Shown here in pieces: positions 858 through 20,928 of a stretch of 21,485 bases of DNA. Source of the DNA: an uncultured Candidatus Saccharibacteria bacterium (GTDB lineage: Bacteria > Patescibacteriota > Minisyncoccia > Phycocordibacterales > CAYRGE01); assembly GCA_964612415.1 (NCBI GenBank), contig CAZTCT010000009.1, positions 1 to 21,485 of the forward strand, written 5' to 3'. The notes under the pieces are model-generated. The model searched no databases. It was given only the letters and a program-made list of their open reading frames with translations, and was not told where the DNA came from. The translations under genes and the position numbers were made by a program. Within the stretch, counting starts at the first letter, position 1, and every line of letters begins with the position of its first letter.

Positions 858-1943
858 ATGGATACAACTAGTCTTGTTGCGGCAAGTTTGACTGCTGGGT
901 CATTTCTGGCAGGGCTCCAAACCCTACCCGAGGGACGGACTTTGGTCGTCAAATTTCTTGGTGGTGCTTTTGCAGTAAAGTTGTCGTACAGGGATCACAA
1001 ATTTCGATATCTGTGCGAACGATACAATCTTAAGCCCGACATCCATTACAGAGAAATTCCCAACCTCAGAGAGGATTACCGACATAAATGGGATATCCTT
1101 GAGCTCACACGAGCAGGAGTTACTGAAATTGAGTCACACTGGCGTGCCAGAATAAATTTCGGCGGCTTAGTGTGGGTTGGACCTTGGCCATTCTTTAAAG
1201 AAGACCGCCAACGATTCTCGTGGGTATCTTACGAACAGACCCGTCAGCAAGACGGGACGGTAGTGGATAAATTCGTTGGAAGAGAGCAGCTACAGGGATT
1301 CTTGCTCGCACAAAAGGATATCTACGCATCAGACATTAAAACAGTGTTGACTGCAGATAATTACCCAGTAGATGTCCTTATTCTGATGGATATTCATGTG
1401 GTAAATCCGTATAAAGCACGATTCCGGACACAGCATTGGCTTGAATACATTCATAACAATGTGCGCCCCATTATTCGTGCATACATACAGTCACATGAAT
1501 ACATACACCTTGCAAAAGAAGGTGGTGCAAGCGAAGAAGAACTCATGAAGCTTCTTCATGGGGAAAGAACTTCTACAAAAGGCGCTCATACCAACAAGAA
1601 AAACCTCTTGCAAGAATTTCTGGAGGCGAATGGTGCAAGTGTAAATAGTGTGAGAATCCTTGACATAGATCCAAACGAAAAGTACCAGAATATTCTCCTT
1701 TTAAAGGCTACCGGCCAAGCAGAAGCAGATCGTATACGCGCTAAGTACGAAGCAATAAAAGACTACGGCTCGAATGGCCTGCACATGCAATTCAATGAAG
1801 CTATCATTGAGGCATCAAAAGGCAATGCAAGTCTTTCTCTTTTTGCAGGTGACCGCACAGACGATTCTCGCATACTGCAAACGGCGGCTCAGCGCATCAT
1901 TAGTGAGCCCATGTCTATACACGCAGCAAGGAGACAGGCATGA
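858..1943 (+). CDS. SPFH/band 7 (stomatin/prohibitin/flotillin-like) domain membrane protein
   Basis: 361 aa; N-terminal hydrophobic anchor; TADNYPVDVLILMDIHVVNPYKARF resembles the SPFH T-x-D-N...v-x-y-r-V-x-dP-x-ka-x-f block; VRILDIDPNE then AEADRIRAKYEAIKDYG coiled/Ala-Glu-rich C-terminal part typical of band-7 proteins; stop overlaps next start (ATGA). Confidence 0.5.
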   Translation: MDTTSLVAASLTAGSFLAGLQTLPEGRTLVVKFLGGAFAVKLSYRDHKFRYLCERYNLKPDIHYREIPNLREDYRHKWDILELTRAGVTEIESHWRARINFGGLVWVGPWPFFKEDRQRFSWVSYEQTRQQDGTVVDKFVGREQLQGFLLAQKDIYASDIKTVLTADNYPVDVLILMDIHVVNPYKARFRTQHWLEYIHNNVRPIIRAYIQSHEYIHLAKEGGASEEELMKLLHGERTSTKGAHTNKKNLLQEFLEANGASVNSVRILDIDPNEKYQNILLLKATGQAEADRIRAKYEAIKDYGSNGLHMQFNEAIIEASKGNASLSLFAGDRTDDSRILQTAAQRIISEPMSIHAARRQA

Positions 1944-2839
1944 ACAGTGATTTGATTATTGTACTAGCAATCATCGCTGTAGTACTTTTCCTCAAGTGGT
2001 ACCCTATCTTGTGGCAAAGTGAGGAACCTACTAAAGGAAACGGAAAGGGTCTATCCCTCCTTGCTTCCGAGCTAGCAAAAAAGGCAGCTTCGTCTGGCTT
2101 CGTAGGCGTCTTGCTCATGATAGGTGGGATATTGTTGATGTTTTGGCAGCTTTTCCCTGACGCATGGAACTGGACGAATGAAGATAGCCACGCCGGTATT
2201 TTCTGGTCTGGACTCGTGCTTTTACTTCTTGTAATCGCATGGAGCACTTTCTCTGGGAACACAAGGTTTGTAATGTTCATTTTTGGTGTAGGCGCTTTGA
2301 TTTTGTTTAGCAAAGGACTCTATACAACCCTCTCCGATGAAGGACATGTAGGCGCATGTAAAGGCAAAAAAGGCGCTGAGCTCTCTCAGTGTGTTACCAG
2401 GCAGAAAACAGCTAGCAACACAACGAGAAACTCCCCGCCCGCAGCAAAGTCTTACTCCGCCACCACGATGCCAACATTCTGTTGGCGCCGAGAGCACATA
2501 GGGCCCGGTGCAAACCAGTCCACTTCTAGCAAGCCAGACTGCAGCGCCATTGTGACATATTTCAAGTACGAGAAGTCGCCAGACGACAACGTGTTTGTAC
2601 AACTTGAATATAAGTTACATGGAGCATCTGGAGTCGCAACTTTAGACACCCGGGTGAACCCCAATGTCGGTGGATGGACGCTCATGTCAGCAGATGGTCA
2701 GCAACTAGACGGCGGTGTATTTAAGATCGCCGAAGATGGAGATGGATATTCAGGAACCATGATTTCCTATTACGACGAGCGTGGCAATTTATTGCCCCGT
2801 GGAGAGTATGGGCAACTGCCCATAACAATTTCGTTTTAG
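1940..2839 (+). CDS. polytopic membrane protein (about 4 TM helices) with C-terminal extracytoplasmic domain; possible NfeD-like partner of the SPFH protein
   Basis: 299 aa; translationally coupled to the SPFH gene (4-bp overlap); SD AGGAG 8 nt upstream; four hydrophobic helices in the first 135 aa, then a soluble Gly/Asp-rich domain; NfeD assignment is by operon analogy only. Confidence 0.55.
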   Translation: MNSDLIIVLAIIAVVLFLKWYPILWQSEEPTKGNGKGLSLLASELAKKAASSGFVGVLLMIGGILLMFWQLFPDAWNWTNEDSHAGIFWSGLVLLLLVIAWSTFSGNTRFVMFIFGVGALILFSKGLYTTLSDEGHVGACKGKKGAELSQCVTRQKTASNTTRNSPPAAKSYSATTMPTFCWRREHIGPGANQSTSSKPDCSAIVTYFKYEKSPDDNVFVQLEYKLHGASGVATLDTRVNPNVGGWTLMSADGQQLDGGVFKIAEDGDGYSGTMISYYDERGNLLPRGEYGQLPITISF

Positions 2840-2849
2840 GAATTTGTCA

Positions 2850-2914
2850 CAGCTCGTCGCGTCTGAACAAAATATCGTTCAGACAGGAAAAAGCGACGAG
2901 CTGTTTTTCTTTTC
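2850..2914 (+). terminator. rho-independent terminator (nested hairpins) after the 1940..2839 gene
   Basis: Outer perfect 11-bp stem CAGCTCGTCGC / GCGACGAGCTG enclosing an inner 8-bp hairpin GTCTGAAC / GTTCAGAC, followed by TTTTTCTTTTC. Confidence 0.65.
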
Positions 2915-2924
2915 ATACAAAAAG

Positions 2925-2953
2925 AAAAAGCCTCGCGAATGCGAGGCCTTTTC
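2925..2953. terminator. bidirectional rho-independent terminator between convergent genes
   Basis: AAAAAG-CCTCGCG-AAT-GCGAGGC-CTTTT; A-run on one side and T-run on the other serve both the + operon and the minus-strand pilin-like array. Confidence 0.65.
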
Positions 2954-2968
2954 TAGAAAGTGGAGATT

Positions 2969-3265
2969 TTAGCGGAAGCACCTAGGGATTTGGTCCGTAA
3001 TGCCCGAATCAGCTCCAACCATCCGCGCGAGCAAACACATGATTGCAAATACAGCCATCATTAGGAACATTCCAACAATTCCCCACACCATGTGTCTTTT
3101 CCCTTTATCGCGCCCTTCGTCACTTTCCCCACTTCTTATGAAGTCAGCAACCCCCCAGAGAAAGAATACTACTGCTGCTGCGAAGAAGAATGTAATTAGT
3201 GGGTTTACGATATTATCGTAGAGCTTAACCATGAACCCACTGATATCAAACACTTGCGCTTCCAT
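2969..3265 (-). CDS. small two-helix membrane protein, VirB2/TrbC (T4SS pilin)-like paralog 6 (no signal peptide)
   Basis: 98 aa; hydrophobic helix FFFAAAVVFFLWGVADFI, charged loop RSGESDEGRDKGKR, second helix HMVWGIVGMFLMMAVFAIMCLL; C-terminal GITDQIPRCF motif shared with the 4260..4529 paralog. Confidence 0.6.
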   Translation of the reverse strand: MEAQVFDISGFMVKLYDNIVNPLITFFFAAAVVFFLWGVADFIRSGESDEGRDKGKRHMVWGIVGMFLMMAVFAIMCLLARMVGADSGITDQIPRCFR

Positions 3266-3300
3266 GCAATAATATTTCTTTGAAAGTTAGCGTGAGCTAG

Positions 3301-3669
3301 TTAGGGAAAGATAGGTGTTGGCGTTGTAGGTGCAGTCTGTGTTGAGTTATCAAGTGCAAGCTGGTTAGTAAGCAATGCTACCAAACCCCAGACAGACACC
3401 ATAACAGCGATTGCAACAATACCCCAAATGATCTTGCCGCGACCAGCTTTTTGCTTTTCAGCATCATCACCAGCAGTAACGTACTGGAATACACCGATGA
3501 TGAAAAGAAGGACTGCGAGCGCGATGATGAACGGAATCAACGCATTGATAAAGTTGTAGATCAGCTCAAGCAAGCCAGAAAGCGTTGTTACCGCAAATGC
3601 GACTGCAGGAGTAGCGAGTGCAAGTGCTGTAAGCGCTGCAAGAGCTGTTCCTTTTTGTGTACCTTTCAT
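3301..3669 (-). CDS. small secreted/membrane protein, VirB2/TrbC (T4SS pilin)-like paralog 5 (with signal peptide)
   Basis: 122 aa; signal peptide ending AVAFA; helix LIPFIIALAVLLFIIGVFQYVTAG, loop DDAEKQKAGRGK, helix IIWGIVAIAVMVSVWGLVALL; Pro/Thr-rich C-terminal tail. Confidence 0.6.
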   Translation of the reverse strand: MKGTQKGTALAALTALALATPAVAFAVTTLSGLLELIYNFINALIPFIIALAVLLFIIGVFQYVTAGDDAEKQKAGRGKIIWGIVAIAVMVSVWGLVALLTNQLALDNSTQTAPTTPTPIFP

Positions 3670-3769
3670 GAATAAAAAGTATGAAGATTAATGAATAAGC
3701 TAATAAGACCGTGCCCTAAATTTCCTGAACGCGCTTACGCGCATATCAGCAGCAAAAATGCCTTTTTAT

Positions 3770-3798
3770 ATGATATACAGAGTGAGGTTTTTGAGCAA
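3770..3798 (-). promoter_or_regulatory. candidate internal promoter of the pilin-like array (for 3301..3669 and downstream)
   Basis: On the minus strand TTGCTC (3798-3793), 15-16 nt spacer, TATATC (3775-3770), inside the only long (156 bp) intergenic gap of the array. Confidence 0.3.
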
Positions 3799-3825
3799 CC
3801 AGCAATGTGGATAGCTCGCGGGAAC

Positions 3826-4203
3826 TTACGGAATTGGCAAAACAGGGACATCAGGCACATTTGAATTGCTATCCTCAAGGCCAAAAGTAAGAAGGAGCAT
3901 GTTCACCAGACCCCATACTGACACCATCACCGCAAGACCAATGACCCCGTAGATGATAAGATCGCGCCCTTTCTTTCGAGCCTCTTCATTGTCCCCCGCC
4001 GCGACATACCGCAACACCCCAATGAGGAAAAGAAGTACTGCAAGACCGATGATGAGCCCTATTAATCCTTGCGCGATAGACCAAATGACACCGATAGCGC
4101 CCTGAATAGTGCCATCTCCTGCAGATCCTCCCGAAGTGAATGTAATGGTGGGGTCAGGGCCTCCGCCCGCTAACAAGTTGCTCAAATGTATTGAAAGATT
4201 CAT
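3826..4203 (-). CDS. small two-helix membrane protein, VirB2/TrbC (T4SS pilin)-like paralog 4
   Basis: 125 aa; Gly-rich N-terminal region without a classical signal peptide; helix IGLIIGLAVLLFLIGVLRYVAAG, loop DNEEARKKGRD, helix LIIYGVIGLAVMVSVWGLVNML; Pro-rich tail DVPVLPIP. Confidence 0.6.
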   Translation of the reverse strand: MNLSIHLSNLLAGGGPDPTITFTSGGSAGDGTIQGAIGVIWSIAQGLIGLIIGLAVLLFLIGVLRYVAAGDNEEARKKGRDLIIYGVIGLAVMVSVWGLVNMLLLTFGLEDSNSNVPDVPVLPIP

Positions 4204-4259
4204 AGTGCTTCTATTATCGCATGTAGCAACCGCCGTTAAAAAGTCCTCCTGTGTATAGC

Positions 4260-4529
4260 TTAAAATCCGGGAATAACATTATCTATCCCGAATGACGTGG
4301 TAATCAAACTTACCAACCCCCACACAGACATCATCACCGCAAGCCCAATAAGCCCAAAAATGATCTGATTTCTCCCCTTTGTGCGCTCCGATTCGTTCTC
4401 TCCAGATTTGATAAAGTTGACCACCCCGATGAAGAAATAAAGCACCGCGAGCGCTACAAAAAGCGCAGTGAGGGGAGAAAAAATGCCTTCAATGACGGCC
4501 TGGACTAGTGATTTGAAGTCAGTGATCAT
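4260..4529 (-). CDS. small two-helix membrane protein, VirB2/TrbC (T4SS pilin)-like paralog 3 (no signal peptide)
   Basis: 89 aa; helix LTALFVALAVLYFFIGVVNFIKSG, loop ENESERTKGRNQ, helix IIFGLIGLAVMMSVWGLVSLI; C-terminal GIDNVIPGF. Confidence 0.6.
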   Translation of the reverse strand: MITDFKSLVQAVIEGIFSPLTALFVALAVLYFFIGVVNFIKSGENESERTKGRNQIIFGLIGLAVMMSVWGLVSLITTSFGIDNVIPGF

Positions 4530-4531
4530 AT

Positions 4532-4903
4532 TTATTGAAGTGAATTAATGGTCTGGGTGATTACATTTGAAAGCACCTGTGCGCCAACGAGGATCGCAGT
4601 ACCTATAATCGCCCCTACAAAAGCACGCTTTGCGGTAGCAAGCTGCTGCTCGTTGCCCTTTGCCGTCACGAACATAAATCCTGCATAAATGAGGAATATT
4701 GCTGCAACAGGTATGCCAATAGTGATGATTATATCAATAATGGCTTTAATAAAATCTGGGAACGTAGGAACATTGATGGGGTTTTCGATCCCCCCGGCCG
4801 CAGCAAGTGACACTCTCGCCCACGTGAAAAATACCGCAAACGCACTCGTGATAATTGCTGCAAATTTGTTCAGGCTCTTCCTCATATTTTTTGTGTTAAG
4901 CAA
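4532..4903 (-). CDS. small secreted/membrane protein, VirB2/TrbC/TraA (T4SS pilin)-like paralog 2
   Basis: ORF-track start is TTG (4903); an in-frame ATG at 4885 gives MRKSLNKFAAIITSAFAVFFTWARVSLA as a signal peptide; helix IPVAAIFLIYAGFMFVTAKGNEQQ, loop, helix AFVGAIIGTAILVGAQVL; FMFVTAKGNE resembles the F-pilin TraA MYMMTKN motif. Confidence 0.6.
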   Translation of the reverse strand: MLNTKNMRKSLNKFAAIITSAFAVFFTWARVSLAAAGGIENPINVPTFPDFIKAIIDIIITIGIPVAAIFLIYAGFMFVTAKGNEQQLATAKRAFVGAIIGTAILVGAQVLSNVITQTINSLQ

Positions 4904-4950
4904 GCTCCATTATATCAGAATAAACTACCCTTTTTGGACATGGTGGGGAT

Positions 4951-5334
4951 TTATGGCGACAGATAATCGGCAGGGTTAAATCCACCTGGCCTGTCAAGAG
5001 ATGTAACAATAAAGTTGACAATCAGCCACGCAGAGAGTGCAATAACAAACCCAATAAATACATAGACAAAGATGCTCTTCGCTTTTGCGTGCTGAGCTTC
5101 ATTCCCTTTTGCGGTCATGTACATGAACCCTGCAACGGCAAAAGAGAGCGCGGCAAGAGGAGCGGCAATATCAAATATCAGAAAATTTATGACTCTTTGC
5201 GCCAAGATCACGAGGTCCTCAAAACTACAGTCTGGACCGTTGCAAGGCACAAGCTGCGCGTGCGCAGCTATGGGAATAAGCAGAACGATCAGAGTGACAG
5301 AAAGTATCGGAGCAAATAAGATGTATTTTTTCAT
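4951..5334 (-). CDS. small secreted/membrane protein, VirB2/TrbC/TraA (T4SS pilin)-like paralog 1
   Basis: 127 aa; signal peptide MKKYILFAPILSVTLIVLLIPIAAHA; helix IAAPLAALSFAVAGFMYMTAKGNE, loop AQHAKAKS, helix IFVYVFIGFVIALSAWLIVNFIV; starts 2 bp after the upstream gene. Confidence 0.6.
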   Translation of the reverse strand: MKKYILFAPILSVTLIVLLIPIAAHAQLVPCNGPDCSFEDLVILAQRVINFLIFDIAAPLAALSFAVAGFMYMTAKGNEAQHAKAKSIFVYVFIGFVIALSAWLIVNFIVTSLDRPGGFNPADYLSP

Positions 5335-5336
5335 AT

Positions 5337-6674
5337 TTACTCAATTTGAAGTGATCTAAATAGCTGGTCAAACTTCTGTCGTGCGCTACTGATAGCATTG
5401 AGGACCCTTTTCTCGTCGGACCCTACGTCATTCACAAGCTGTGCAAAAATATTATTTGTTTGTATTGGATCTGGATCAAACCAACTCTTGCTGATAAGTG
5501 CTGAACGGTAGAAGATGCTTGCTCGAGGATCTGTTCCAGGTGGAGCCGCGATCAATGCCTTTTGCGCAGGGGCCATGCTTTCCATTTGAGCAAAATTTTT
5601 GACTGCAGGAGAGTACGCAAGCCCTGTTGCCACCGCAAGAGTAAGGGGAGTGCCTTTTCCCTTGAGAATTGAGAGTCCGTACATGCGTCCAAAAGTAGTA
5701 GAGATGGTACTTCCTTCAAGTTGTGGCAGTATCGCAACGTCAAAATCTAGATGCGGATTCCTGCGAGCAATTTCGGGTGCTTCGCTTGCAAGCCCAAAGT
5801 AAATGGCAAGTTTCCCTGATGCAAACATTTCTTGAGCATCAGACAAGGAACGATTCCATGTGTAAGCAGGGCTGCTCTCTTTTGCAAATTGCAAATAAAA
5901 ACGCAGTACTGATGCTAGTGGCGCCTCACTTTCTCTGCTTGTAGCATCCTGCCCAAAATAAAGAGTTATCTTCCCTGTCGCTGGGTCACGCGCAATGATA
6001 CGATCTCCCGCCTGCAGCAAGAACGCTGAGAGAATCTCTTTTGCATCTGGAATATTCACATACTCCCCGAGACTAACCGCACTTTGCGCAATGCTCTTTG
6101 TGATTGGGTCAGAGAAGATAGTAAGCTGCGGAACAAGGGCGAAAAATTCCTCCCATTTCTCTGGCGGCCTGACAAGCCCCGCAGAAGAAAAGATGGAGCG
6201 ATTCCAGTACATGACGAGTGGGTCAACCACAAGGGGTAATGCTGCTACTTGATTGCTTGTTAGGTACATCTCACTTTGAGGAATGAAAGTGTCTTGAAAA
6301 TCTCGAATAGAGAGAACAAGCGGTTGTATCTTGAGTTGATGTCTTAAAAATCTATCTTGTGGAATGAGTATTATGTCAGGACCTGTGCCAACGGCGATTG
6401 CTTCAGCAAGCTGTCTATCTATGGTATCAGCAGTCTTCTCAACGTAATTCAGCGAGAGTTTCGTATCGTTTGGAAATGCCTCCTTCACAAGATCGTTAAA
6501 GTTATCCGCCGAGAGTGTACCCCATACAGTAACAGTACCCACCAGCCCTTGATCTTTTTTAGTCTCACTGGCAAACCATCCAAGCGAGAACGCCATCATG
6601 GCAAAAAAGGCGAAAAAGGCGAACGCACCTATGAGCGCTACCTGGAAAGGACTAAGTGACTTGAGTGAATTCAT
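5337..6674 (-). CDS. membrane-anchored extracellular solute-binding protein (SBP family 1-like); no cognate permease or ATPase in window
   Basis: 445 aa; N-terminal TM anchor; TVTVWGTLSADNFNDLVKEAFPNDTKLSLNYVEKTADTIDRQLAEAIAVGTGPDIILIPQD matches the start of family-1 SBPs (tvW...y..kl.ta.aag.gPDv). Confidence 0.5.
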   Translation of the reverse strand: MNSLKSLSPFQVALIGAFAFFAFFAMMAFSLGWFASETKKDQGLVGTVTVWGTLSADNFNDLVKEAFPNDTKLSLNYVEKTADTIDRQLAEAIAVGTGPDIILIPQDRFLRHQLKIQPLVLSIRDFQDTFIPQSEMYLTSNQVAALPLVVDPLVMYWNRSIFSSAGLVRPPEKWEEFFALVPQLTIFSDPITKSIAQSAVSLGEYVNIPDAKEILSAFLLQAGDRIIARDPATGKITLYFGQDATSRESEAPLASVLRFYLQFAKESSPAYTWNRSLSDAQEMFASGKLAIYFGLASEAPEIARRNPHLDFDVAILPQLEGSTISTTFGRMYGLSILKGKGTPLTLAVATGLAYSPAVKNFAQMESMAPAQKALIAAPPGTDPRASIFYRSALISKSWFDPDPIQTNNIFAQLVNDVGSDEKRVLNAISSARQKFDQLFRSLQIE

Positions 6675-6676
6675 AA

Positions 6677-7282
6677 CTATTGTCGCGCGCCATACTGATT
6701 GTTAAATGATATCGCCGCTCCGTTTGCTCCCGCCTTCTTAACAATGAATCCGTAATGCTGTCTTCCTGGCGCAATATCTTTTTCAAAAGAAAACCCTTTT
6801 GCTAAAAAGAGATGCTTGGCTTGATCTGCGGACAAAACCGCGCCCGCTTCAGGGCCCATCCCTCCATAAGACTCTTTCCAGTCAATCACAAGGACCTTGC
6901 CCCCTGGTTTTAAAATACGATCTATCTCAGAAACTGAGCCCTCCTTGTCCTCAAGCTGGAAAAGCACATTGGAAGCAATGACTGCGTCAACACTACTATC
7001 CGCAAGCTTTGTGCCTCCACGCCTCTCGATGTCACCCCATATTGCTTCAACATTTGAAAGCCCCTCTTTGGAAGCAGCGTTCTTCACGCGAATTGCCAAA
7101 TCTTTCTGCACTTCAATTGCATACACTTTGCCAAAATCGCGCACGCGACGAGCTGCTGCAACGGTGTACGCACCAGAGCCGGCGCCAAGATCGGCGACCG
7201 TCATATGTGCAGTCAGTCCAAATTGCTCCAGATTTTTATCCGGATCGGAAAACATTGCTTGTATTATATCTCCTAAAGACAA
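6677..7282 (-). CDS. class I SAM-dependent methyltransferase
   Basis: Motif [13 protein letters not shown] and post-motif [12 protein letters not shown]; ORF-track start is TTG (7282, overlapping the gyrA stop by 10 bp); alternative ATG at 7255 gives no overlap. Confidence 0.7.
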
Positions 7283-19581: not shown

Positions 19582-20928
19582 CTACTTTCTAAACCCCTGG
19601 AGATTCCAAGAGGACACTGCGCACACATTATCCTGACATCCACATTTCCAAGAGGAGTTTTGGTATAGCACGCACACATATGCAGCAAAGAAGTTCTGGG
19701 TTTGCTGTTCTGCTGTCGTCATGGATTCTATACGTTCTCCTTTGCCAATAATCCAAAGCCCTCCTCCAGCTGTTGTTGCCCCTGTTAAATTAATCGGCAC
19801 CCAGTCACGTGCATTTTTTGTGTAGTAAGCTTGGTGCCAAACATATGTTGTTGGTTGTCCATTCCCTGCTGAAAATGTAACCTGAGTATTTGTGCCTCCA
19901 CAAAGCACATTTAAAATGAGCTCTTTCGCAGTACTAAAGATATTATACGCCACTCCGTAACCAGCTGGCGTTGTTGTTGTATTGGTATACGAATTACAAA
20001 AACCTCCCCCACCCCCAGAAGGAGCTGGTGCTCCTCCCGCAGGTGCCACTTCTGCATAACTTGAATTCGCATCACCAATGCGATATTCGTCATGATATAC
20101 AGAACGTCGGGGTTCATCTGCGTCTTCTGGATGAATATCGTCTCTCCACCATGCCTTGTAATCACCTATTTTCCAGTAAGGTCCTAAGGTATCGTGTGGC
20201 ATATTTTTGCCATAATAACTATGTACCAACACGCCGTCCTTCCAAATCTCCATTATTCCATTGTCATCATATGTCCATTTCACATGAATAACCCAGTCGT
20301 ACCACTTATCGTGCTCAACAACTCCAGAAAGGTTGTAGTCACCATAATTTGTCTCAATTCTCCATATCAAATTACCGCTCTGTTTCCTGCCAAGTCCTGG
20401 CTCTGGCATTGTCGCGATAATAAGTGGGTAACAGTCCCCACAGAACTCTTGTGCTGTGAGCGAATCCAGATTGGCATGCCATTGATAGATCATATCCCTA
20501 TCCCATGGGACCCCTCCTCCACTATTCCTGAAAGCGTATTCAGATGATGGGAAATAAACACTGAAGCCGATCCAGAACTCCTTACCGTTCCAATTTTTCT
20601 CTGCAAGACGAGCGTTGCTTGGAGAGGTCACTTCTGATCTCCAGGCAGCCTGCATGTCCGTGCCAACTGTTGAACGAAGATAGTATTGTCCTGCTCGTGC
20701 TGGAACATTATTCTCCACAGCTCTCGATGGTCCAGGAGGATTACCGTCGTGGCAGGTATATTTTCCATTTGGATTACTACCAGCTACCCCCTGGCATGGC
20801 TGGTCATCCCAATCAATCGTTCCTGATTCAAATCCATCATAAAAAAGGAGTGCCGCCTGAGCTGGAACCGGCATAAACCAAGTGAAAAGAGTGACCGCCG
20901 CAAACAACAGTGAGATGATAAGATTCAT
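19582..20928 (-). CDS. secreted ConA-like polysaccharide lyase family (PF14099-like) protein with Gly/Pro/Ala linker and Cys-rich C-terminal module
   Basis: Signal peptide ...PVPAQA; ALLFYDGFESGTIDW; FWIGFSVYFP; YQWH; CGDCYPLI; KWYDWVIHVKWTYDDNGIMEIWKDGVLV; GPYWKIGDYK; VYHDEYRIGD...SYAEVAP, matching remembered hallmarks of the heparin-lyase-I-like ConA-fold lyase family; linker APAGGAPAPSGGGGG then a 150-aa C-terminal domain with CGC..C cluster. Confidence 0.55.
   Translation of the reverse strand: MNLIISLLFAAVTLFTWFMPVPAQAALLFYDGFESGTIDWDDQPCQGVAGSNPNGKYTCHDGNPPGPSRAVENNVPARAGQYYLRSTVGTDMQAAWRSEVTSPSNARLAEKNWNGKEFWIGFSVYFPSSEYAFRNSGGGVPWDRDMIYQWHANLDSLTAQEFCGDCYPLIIATMPEPGLGRKQSGNLIWRIETNYGDYNLSGVVEHDKWYDWVIHVKWTYDDNGIMEIWKDGVLVHSYYGKNMPHDTLGPYWKIGDYKAWWRDDIHPEDADEPRRSVYHDEYRIGDANSSYAEVAPAGGAPAPSGGGGGFCNSYTNTTTTPAGYGVAYNIFSTAKELILNVLCGGTNTQVTFSAGNGQPTTYVWHQAYYTKNARDWVPINLTGATTAGGGLWIIGKGERIESMTTAEQQTQNFFAAYVCVLYQNSSWKCGCQDNVCAVSSWNLQGFRK

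Follow-up and report, generated by a model that had tools for sequence, protein, structure and literature searches.

The six-gene array and its protein family

The DNA analyzed here is positions 1–21,485 of contig CAZTCT010000009.1 (denoted as the window), and the element in question is a cluster of small pilin-like genes on its minus strand. The region 2969–5334 contains six small tandem open reading frames (ORFs), each with a start and a stop codon, which are denoted as pil1 to pil6. In the direction of transcription, the array begins with pil6 (4951–5334, 127 aa) and pil5 (4532–4885, 117 aa counted from the ATG), continues with pil4 (4260–4529, 89 aa) and pil3 (3826–4203, 125 aa), and, after a 156-nt intergenic gap (3670–3825), ends with the penultimate gene pil2 (3301–3669, 122 aa) and the last gene pil1 (2969–3265, 98 aa). 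This gap is the sole long intergenic gap in the array, as a sequence-only reading of the same DNA had stated. A terminator scan places a strong intrinsic terminator 3′ of pil1 (2918–2954, minus strand), in which a 14-bp G+C-rich stem closed by a 4-nt loop is followed by a T-run. Upstream of the array, a gene on the same strand encodes a membrane-anchored extracellular solute-binding protein (SBP; SBP_bac_1/8 by Pfam, 445 aa, 5337–6674), and 2 nt separate its stop codon from pil6. The SBP gene has no permease or ATPase gene near it in the window. It is preceded by a gene for a class I S-adenosylmethionine-dependent methyltransferase (6677–7282, minus strand, by Pfam), a conserved neighbor upstream of the SBP–pilin module. 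The sequence-only reading had treated four of the ORFs, pil1 to pil4, as "subfamily-A" paralogs and had proposed that they form a substrate for recombination or antigenic variation. The array continues with pil5 and pil6, which constitute subfamily B.

All six ORFs exceed the gathering score of 26.6 bits for PF18895 (T4SS_pilin, where T4SS denotes the type IV secretion system), with a range of 27.8–41.7 bits. The individual scores are 27.8 bits for pil1, which is just marginally over the threshold, 34.4 for pil2, 39 for pil3, 41.7 for pil4, 33.4 for pil5, and 39.2 for pil6. The cut-off of PF04956 (TrbC/VirB2; 27.9 bits) is also passed by pil5 (32.7 bits) and pil6 (30.1 bits). A profile–profile alignment with hhalign indicates that the two subfamilies are homologous (probability 98.1%, E 9e-14). 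pil5 additionally shows a weak match, below the cut-off, to DctQ, the small membrane subunit of an SBP-dependent transporter (E 6e-4). Where a homolog of the pilins or the SBP has a named source, the label is mostly Parcubacteria, Paceibacterota, or Patescibacteria. Pairwise identity within the six-gene array is 15–51%. The conserved core ascribed to subfamily A is only 26–53% identical between the four copies. The second-helix pattern given for them is present in pil2, pil3, and pil4 and absent from pil1, which has 7 mismatches at 18 positions; likewise, the KG[KR] loop holds for pil1, pil3, and pil4 and fails for pil2, which has GRGK. The interhelix loops of these copies are short and basic, carrying KGK, GRGK, or KGR.

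An AlphaFold model of pil3, built on 65 homologs, predicts a two-helix hairpin with helices at residues 33–68 and 73–106 and a predicted local distance difference test score (pLDDT) of 80–88 in the helices. Residues 13–31 have a pLDDT below 50, and the C-terminal tail (residues 107–125) is non-helical, with a block pLDDT of about 59–68. The model agrees with the earlier proposal of a helical-hairpin core with unstructured termini, although this fold alone is too simple to be diagnostic. As a separate observation, some pil3 homologs of about 190–210 aa in relatives (P0004–P0017) contain two complete PF18895 hairpins fused in one chain, which suggests that neighboring array subunits can be covalently joined.

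The termini distinguish the individual pilins. The four tails quoted in the sequence-only reading each occur in exactly one ORF: GITDQIPRCF in pil1, the Pro/Thr-rich TAPTTPTPIFP in pil2, DVPVLPIP in pil3 (whose C-terminal tail is …GLEDSNSNVPDVPVLPIP), and GIDNVIPGF in pil4. The two long N-terminal extensions were also located correctly, that of pil2 being Sec-signal-like and that of pil3 Gly-rich. By inspection, pil2, pil5, and pil6 show the basic n-region, hydrophobic h-region, and AxA-type site of a putative Sec-type signal peptide, and none is apparent in pil1 and pil4. Cleavage of pil2 is predicted between …AVAFA and VTT. The signal peptide of pil5 would leave a mature N-terminus starting around …GIENPINVP. 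That of pil6 would be cleaved between …AAHA and QLVP, placing the Cys pair of PCNGPDC at the mature N-terminus. This pair is retained in three relatives (L005; L035, 11320–11703; L036, 11330–11719) and in the consensus of the corresponding array position (class B1), and it suggests a disulfide-bonded N-terminal loop. The N-terminal extension of pil3 (residues 1–31; window 3826–3918) is Gly-rich and, unlike a normal signal peptide, non-hydrophobic, and disorder is predicted for it. Among three pil3 orthologs (P0001–P0003), the extension varies with indels and the C-terminal tail is nearly invariant.

Conservation of the array from strains to the class

Near-relatives were collected by exact-protein look-up, which yielded three further contigs from independent samples. 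Their DNA identity to the window is 99.84% over 13.3 kb (L001), 97.0% over 8.7 kb (L002), and 99.0% over 1.2 kb (L003). L001 and L002 contain all six genes in the window's order, as does L003 for the section that it covers. The tails are invariant or one residue apart among the four haplotypes. In pil3, the window differs from L002 and L003 at nine positions, all nine synonymous and none non-synonymous; pil2 of L002 has one synonymous difference, and its pil1 has three differences with two amino-acid changes. The differences between L001 and the window, 21 in all, fall within an 82-nt patch of pil4 (nt 78–159, first transmembrane segment and loop; window 4350–4452, L001 9752–9833), which causes five amino-acid changes and leaves the termini identical. 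At these 21 sites, the ortholog in the species-level relative L005 agrees with L001 at 13 and with the window at 5. In L002, a block of about 1 kb (window about 4750–5600, covering the pil5 N-terminus, pil6, and the SBP 3′ end) is 9–17% diverged against a background of about 1%, and its amino-acid changes are almost all in the signal peptides of pil5 and pil6; in pil6, 13 of the 15 amino-acid changes between strains are located within the signal peptide. The array of L002 is about 2.5 times as diverged as its flanks by the sum of per-region counts, and like patches occur in the methyltransferase and gyrA genes. A local paralog was considered as the donor of the pil4 patch or of the synonymous patch in pil3; no paralog matches either, and gene conversion within the array was rejected. 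Because of the agreement with the L005 allele and the lack of a similar neighboring paralog, the patches are attributed to short imports of orthologous alleles from diverged lineages, or to chimeric assemblies of co-existing strains, and not to conversion between paralogs. Some may indeed reflect chimeric metagenome assembly, which would leave the allele-level conclusions unchanged.

The DNA of the paralogs offers little material for exchange. Paralogous genes are 39–56% identical, their longest exact common run is 12 nt, and the repeat families in the array are 61–81% identical stretches encoding the two helices, with nothing closer. Two 20-mers had been cited as a sign of nucleotide identity between copies. 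Both are present (3917–3936 and 4324–4343; 0 expected by chance), but given this low identity and the 12-nt limit they reflect a common AVM[VM]SVWG peptide and not recent exchange. Silent or truncated donor cassettes are not seen: six of six copies are complete ORFs, each conserved as an ortholog. A repeat search of 2800–5450 found no near-identical repeat pair of the diversity-generating retroelement (DGR) type, and no reverse transcriptase match was obtained among the window ORFs scanned. A DGR was ruled out on these two grounds and on the mostly synonymous, third-position changes between strains.

At the species level, two relatives are informative: L005, whose SBP is 91% identical, and a JGI contig (sample 3300056388), for which the gene table only was used and whose SBP is 68% identical. 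In the order of the window, the pilins measure 126, 120, 89, 124, 122, and 98 aa in L005 and 128, 119, 90, 112, 124, and 99 aa in the JGI contig. Each window paralog has one clear ortholog in L005, with 72–90% amino-acid identity and its own tail kept. The tails of the window and L005 read GADSGITDQIPRCFR and GADSTITDQIPACFR in pil1, …TAPTTPTPIFP and …NAPTTQPPIFP in pil2, …SNSNVPDVPVLPIP and …SNSNVPDVPVLPTPY in pil3, and GIDNVIPGF and GISNVIPQF in pil4. The ortholog of pil1 is 88% identical in L005, and pil1 is still 48% identical to the last gene of a Yonathbacteria array. Nei–Gojobori counts between the window and L005, pooled over pil1–pil4, gave proportions of non-synonymous differences (pN) of 0.091 in the N-regions, 0.069 in the core, and 0.112 in the C-terminal tails, and proportions of synonymous differences (pS) of 0.63–0.74, which are near saturation. 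Constraint on the tails is thus weaker than on the helices by a factor of 1.6 at most, and omega, the ratio of the two rates, is far below 1 in every region. Judged from these counts, purifying selection acts on the subfamily-A tails in each line of orthologs. The fast-evolving parts lie elsewhere, in the signal peptides of pil5 and pil6 (pN 0.34), the tail of pil6 (pN 0.36, omega about 0.69), and the N-terminal extension of pil3 with its indels. Over the 65 pil3 homologs, column entropy is 2.5–2.7 bits in the tails vs 1.2–1.6 bits in the helices, and tail length is variable; nevertheless, P117 of pil3, a proline eight residues from the C-terminus, is at least 90% conserved family-wide, and the tails share a Pro-containing motif. 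The tails called hypervariable differ between paralogs and not between strains, and the proposal that they diverge faster holds over the long term across the family and fails between strains. Comparisons of the kind suggested with that proposal, dN/dS per region and the array across strains and relatives, gave a tail pN of 0.09–0.11 vs 0.07 in the core, a fixed copy number, and paralogs that each retain their own tail, in substance the outcome that the sequence-only reading had named as refuting its proposal.

One genome per GTDB species was scanned with an SBP alignment, which returned at least 597 loci. In 80 of these, all ORFs were profiled with both subfamilies, and the array counts rest on 60 loci from distinct species whose downstream DNA is uncut by a contig end. 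Four to seven pilins directly follow the SBP gene in 57 of these 60 loci, all from other Paceibacteria species, and the SBP gene followed by a pilin array is also present in L001, L002, L005, L035, L036, and L037. The prevailing pattern is BBAAA (32 loci), followed by the window's type BBAAAA (16 loci) and BBAAAAA (3 loci). The largest gap lies directly before the last two genes in 49 of the 57 arrays (median minimum gap, 118 nt), and the number of subfamily-A genes before it varies from one to three between species. All 76 of 76 loci have a methyltransferase homolog upstream of the SBP gene, and 57 of 63 have an upstream gyrA in the same orientation. Around SBP homologs of about 40% identity, from Yonathbacteria and two other lineages, the order is a metallo-beta-lactamase-fold gene, a small gene, gyrA, the methyltransferase gene, and the SBP gene, and the best matches of the pilins that follow run pil6, pil5, pil4, pil3/pil2, and pil1. 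Regarding the SBP itself, an orphan anchored SBP_bac_1 protein (5337–6674, minus strand; L038–L117) is the constant upstream partner of Paceibacteria pilin arrays.

Per-position alignments from 48 species revealed a distinct consensus for each slot. The B1 consensus has a Cys pair after the signal peptide, and B2, the class of pil5, is characterized by NPl…IYsGFLFV.AqGne. The consensus of the penultimate gene starts with MKK…lP..A.Aq and includes a signal peptide, and that of the last gene (class "A-last", that of pil1) is short, without a signal peptide, and contains …IlnP.i.LlFalA..yFlwGv…Gk.hm.WG…. These alignments indicate that the paralogs are older than the split of the Paceibacteria families and that each has stayed distinct since. 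This early separation would account for the differences between the tails, and identities kept apart for so long point to non-redundant subunits and not to interchangeable variants. Two other scans were unproductive: a search of genome contigs with a single SBP protein gave 68 pattern matches, of which none was confirmed, and a search of metagenome contigs with a pil2 ortholog alignment, which made poor patterns, confirmed 0 of 600 stretches.

The 3670–3825 gap and the surrounding genes

The proposal of an internal promoter in the gap between pil3 and pil2 receives good comparative support. On the minus strand, a −35-like TTGCTC (3793–3798) and a −10-like TATCAT (3770–3775) are separated by a 17-nt spacer. 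The pair TTGCT[CG] and TAT[CG]AT is kept exactly 17 nt apart in the window, L002, L005, and L004, and the sequence of the spacer diverges. In this comparative sense the predicted promoter of the conserved gap is real, and it would give pil2 a leader of about 95 nt. The terminator scan found one terminator after pil1 and none after pil3. Seven nucleotides upstream of the −35-like hexamer lies a DnaA-box-like CTATCCACA (3806–3814, minus strand), one mismatch from TTATCCACA, the DnaA-box consensus. A 9-mer with at most one mismatch from TTATCCACA occurs in 32 of 54 gaps and is on the coding strand in 30 of the 32; shuffles gave a mean of 2.4 and a maximum of 10 in 500. The density of the box is 4.30/kb in the gaps vs 0.28/kb in the rest of the loci, an approximately 15-fold difference, and the box usually ends 5–9 nt before a TTGnnn hexamer. 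It is seen in the gap of the window and among the equivalent gaps of L005, L004, L037, and L039–L112, whereas Yonathbacteria-type gaps share instead a near-consensus promoter (TTGTAG, 17 nt, TATAAT). The gap promoter thus probably has a dedicated regulator site, and from the match to the consensus we infer that DnaA may be the protein that binds it. The gap was also considered as an oriC and rejected as such, the whole window containing 6 DnaA boxes vs 4 expected and showing no enrichment.

Within the leader, AAGGCAnTTTTGCTGCTGAT (3745–3764) is invariant in close relatives only, and a hairpin (3725–3749) shows three compensatory pairs among the three sequences compared. A GGTCG-type motif lies some 50 nt ahead of the start codon; GGTCG occurs in 13 of 54 gaps, where 1.7 would be expected. 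The leader of the window (3709–3764, minus strand) combines the AAGGCAnTTTTGCTGCTGAT block with the GGTCG-type motif; the observation also covers leaders in L037, L040, L047–L049, L058, L062, L081, L082, L090, and L112. The 20-nt leader motif was also sought in metagenome contigs, where it gave 29 matches, none with a pilin or SBP by tblastn, and all were dismissed as chance. No Rfam match lies in the gap or leader; at gathering and permissive thresholds, an Rfam search of the window returned three tRNAs only, with sub-threshold leader and terminator look-alikes around 2920–2970.

The gene directly downstream of the gap stands out among the six. pil2 is the most conserved copy, with 90% identity in L005, 77% in L004, and a pN of 0.051, and per-locus scores place the penultimate gene as the top scorer against the subfamily-A profile in most arrays listed. 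Because of this conservation, the profile scores, and the predicted promoter of its own, pil2 is the best candidate for a major subunit.

The other genes of the window are housekeeping genes (gyrA, S1, pth, lepB, hisS, ybeY, ftsA, ftsZ, and trxB), and the GC skew of the window tracks gene orientation. On the far side of the array terminator, an inverted repeat (CAGCTCGTCGC … GCGACGAGCTG, 2845–2900) lies between pil1 and a convergent plus-strand gene (1940–2839), of which it is probably the terminator. That gene encodes a 299-aa membrane protein without a Pfam family and overlaps by 4 nt with an SPFH/Band-7 gene (858–1943, plus strand). L001, L002, and the JGI contig, the nearest relatives, retain the pair, but deeper Paceibacteria loci do not, with 0 and 5 matches in 60. 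At the other end of the window, 19582–20928 (minus strand) encodes a protein of 448 aa that begins with a hydrophobic, signal-like segment and contains a polysaccharide-lyase domain (PF14099, E 2e-26), possibly a host-surface-degrading enzyme of an epibiont.

Interpretation and relation to known systems

Considering the family assignment, the synteny, and the selection regime described above, it is probable that the four ORFs form the distal end of an array of six genes for VirB2/TrbC-like PF18895 proteins in the core chromosome of a Paceibacteria bacterium (Parcubacteria, within Patescibacteria or the Candidate Phyla Radiation, CPR), and that this array is a fixed, ancient module whose genes encode distinct, long-lived subunit types, parts of one structure and not alternatives to each other. 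The module would run from gyrA through the methyltransferase gene and the anchored SBP gene to two subfamily-B pilins, one to three A pilins, the gap, and two A pilins, with a signal-peptide status, length, and tail particular to each array position. Transcription from upstream may cover the SBP gene and pil6 to pil3 together, with read-through into the distal genes, while the second promoter in the 156-nt gap would add expression of pil2 and pil1, and transcription would end at the hairpin at 2918–2954. The products are expected to insert as helical hairpins with the basic loop in the cytoplasm and both termini outside, pil2, pil5, and pil6 after cleavage of their signal peptides. The six proteins might then assemble, one as the major and several as accessory parts, into a single heteromeric surface filament or conduit, which would presumably work with the chromosomal VirB4-type T4SS needed by Patescibacteria for epibiotic growth. 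A more far-reaching version can be offered as a speculation that we regard as rather doubtful: the methyltransferase, SBP, and BB–A(n)–gap–AA module beside gyrA would be an undescribed core apparatus of Paceibacteria, building one heteromeric surface structure apart from the virB4 locus, with expression of its last two subunits, the probable major one among them, set by DnaA via the box 5–9 nt upstream of the −35 of the internal promoter. If so, DnaA control would couple the assembly of a host-contact organelle to replication or the cell cycle.

Several observations weigh against the preferred interpretation of a fixed set of pilus subunits. The search of the 21.5-kb window found no genes for VirB3, VirB4, VirB6, or a coupling protein, and the Pfam-annotated gene tables of L001, L035, L036, and L037 list no T4SS machinery gene, the 80 genome-collection loci being unscreened in this respect; the proposed link of the array to a T4SS is accordingly one of family annotation. 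Filament formation by PF18895 proteins is likewise a prediction. A Foldseek search of the pil3 model against the PDB gave no match at E ≤0.001, the best pilin in the list being the conjugation pilus of Aeropyrum pernix (8dfu; rank 2, E 1.3, probability 0.69), and hidden Markov model (HMM) searches of PDB sequences returned nothing relevant. The gap promoter matches 8 of 12 consensus positions and is not called by a simple consensus scan, and the leader, with a fold z-score of −0.95, is not unusually stable. The C-terminal tail of pil6 and the signal peptides evolve fast (pN 0.30–0.36). Moreover, public data contain only four haplotypes and two or three species-level relatives of this lineage, so that the power to detect rare tail variants is low. 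Among about 15 billion proteins, clustering at 90% identity gathers only one or two sequences for each of the six pilins, which gives no sign of a pool of alleles in a thinly sampled lineage.

In the antigenic or phase variation put forward for this array, the paralogs would be a recombination repertoire whose exposed tails are changed by gene conversion or hypermutation to evade recognition. The paralogs do have strongly different tails and short similar nucleotide stretches, and strain differences do cluster in the array, as the 21 differences of L001 in 13.3 kb all fall in pil4 and the array of L002 is about 2.5 times as diverged as its flanks. Antigenic variation has also been raised for Patescibacteria arrays by analogy with Bartonella and Anaplasma (PMC12102498, Microb Genom 2025). 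A repertoire of this kind is nevertheless hard to reconcile with six full-length genes of constant copy number with one-to-one orthologs, whose positional classes persist across the class Paceibacteria. Tail pN (0.09–0.11 vs 0.07 in the core) and an omega far below 1 indicate constraint, strain changes are mostly synonymous with no tail reshuffled, and the pil4 patch fits an orthologous allele and not a paralog. Paralogs with exact matches of at most 12 nt and 39–56% nucleotide identity share no tract long enough for homologous exchange, and the window shows neither a DGR-type repeat pair nor a reverse transcriptase match in the ORFs scanned. We consider this explanation largely refuted and very improbable. 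Slow host-range diversification, in which the paralogs would be alternative adhesive or tip subunits whose tails and pre-gap A copy number adapt over speciation time, has several observations in its favor: over the 65 homologs the tails are the least conserved part (2.5–2.7 vs 1.2–1.6 bits) and variable in length, one to three pre-gap A genes occur between species, omega of the pil6 tail is about 0.69, relatives have fused double pilins (P0004–P0017), and adaptation to different host strains has been suggested (PMC12102498). Within the present lineage, however, the subfamily-A tails are under purifying selection, P117 with its conservation of at least 90% points to a common structural or processing role and not to free variation, and unstructured termini are expected to evolve fast without an adaptive drive. 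This possibility appears unlikely.

A third explanation dispenses with the pilus. The two-helix proteins and the anchored SBP could form an envelope complex independent of a T4SS, for example an apparatus for substrate capture or uptake or a membrane scaffold, in which case "pilin" would denote a distant homology. This would fit the invariable association with an orphan SBP gene, seen in 57 of 60 species and with a 2-nt spacing in the window, the lack of a T4SS machinery gene in the window and the four Pfam-annotated loci, a Foldseek search that does not discriminate, and the sub-threshold match of pil5 to DctQ (E 6e-4). On the other hand, pil5 and pil6 pass the curated TrbC/VirB2 threshold, and the SBP has no permease or ATPase gene beside it in the window. 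Predicted pilins of Southlakia lie inside an essential T4SS cluster (PMC10633639, Cell 2023), and a VirB2-like gene is found near virB4 in 1135 of 1948 Patescibacteria assemblies (PMC12102498). An envelope complex of this kind seems improbable, and the fixed set of pilus subunits remains the preferred interpretation.

Few envelope components have been shown to be indispensable to the epibiotic life of a cultivated Patescibacterium, and VirB2-like pilins are among them. The published guess at why such small genomes maintain so many divergent copies is antigenic or host-range variation. For Paceibacteria, our findings suggest that the copies are non-redundant parts, each with a set place in the array, that have been conserved throughout the history of the class. 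The question would then move from how they vary to what heteromeric structure is built and what part the SBP has in it, and the internal promoter with its DnaA-box-like site offers a regulatory feature that can be tested directly. Tails that varied within populations would make this array the first antigenic-variation system in CPR bacteria, but nothing in the present data points to such variation.

The array belongs to a kind published in 2025, together with a speculative analogy to antigenic variation (PMC12102498). Patescibacteria chromosomes contain tandem VirB2-like arrays of 2–11 genes with a mean within-array identity of about 25% and a maximum of 54%; 813 of 1948 assemblies also have pilins away from virB4, and the T4SS of Patescibacteria is without a relaxase (PMC12102498). 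According to the passage on arrays in that paper, they are most abundant in Microgenomatia and Saccharimonadia. A predicted pilin series lies in the T4SS cluster essential for growth on the host in Ca. Southlakia epibionticum ML1 (PMC10633639). The array in the window resembles these systems, which include that of Nanosynbacter lyticus TM7x, in its PF18895/PF04956 families, its tandem arrangement on a CPR chromosome, its copy number of six, and its identity of 15–51%. It differs in that it is not beside virB4 but joined to an anchored SBP gene in the vicinity of gyrA, and in its fixed order of BB, A(n), gap, and AA with a promoter gap and a DnaA-box-like site. A term search of the main text of PMC12102498, where arrays are treated in one passage, found no mention of an SBP linkage. 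In the literature searched, the SBP partner near gyrA, the fixed layout, the evidence for stable subunits, and the DnaA-like box, all of them results of sequence comparison, appear not to have been described before. The VirB2 paralog clusters of Bartonella and Anaplasma phagocytophilum, as reported through PMC12102498, have been proposed to give antigenic variation and likewise consist of several tandem, divergent virB2-type genes. As far as that account describes them, the array in the window differs in its one-to-one orthologs, fixed copy number, and purifying selection on the tails.

VirB2 of Agrobacterium, TrbC of RP4, and TraA of F share with the window pilins two hydrophobic helices, a short basic loop, and, in some copies, a putative N-terminal signal or leader, and the TrbC/VirB2 HMM threshold is exceeded by pil5 and pil6. 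A single pilin gene within the T4SS operon is the norm in those systems, which belong to diderm bacteria, whereas the window has six differentiated paralogs, three of them with no apparent signal peptide, with no adjacent T4SS genes and no detectable similarity to solved pilins. The pilE/pilS system of Neisseria is also a pilin family with a conserved hydrophobic part and variable exposed parts, but its fold and machinery are unrelated. There, truncated, unexpressed pilS copies have long stretches of conserved DNA in common with pilE, in contrast to the window copies, which are all complete and share runs of no more than 12 nt. Co-encoded major and minor pilins build one filament with one abundant subunit in type IV pili and type II secretion pseudopili. 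These belong to another superfamily, and the window pilins have no class III signal peptide or prepilin peptidase site. By analogy, their differentiated and individually conserved small subunits may nonetheless serve as a working model for the array in the window.

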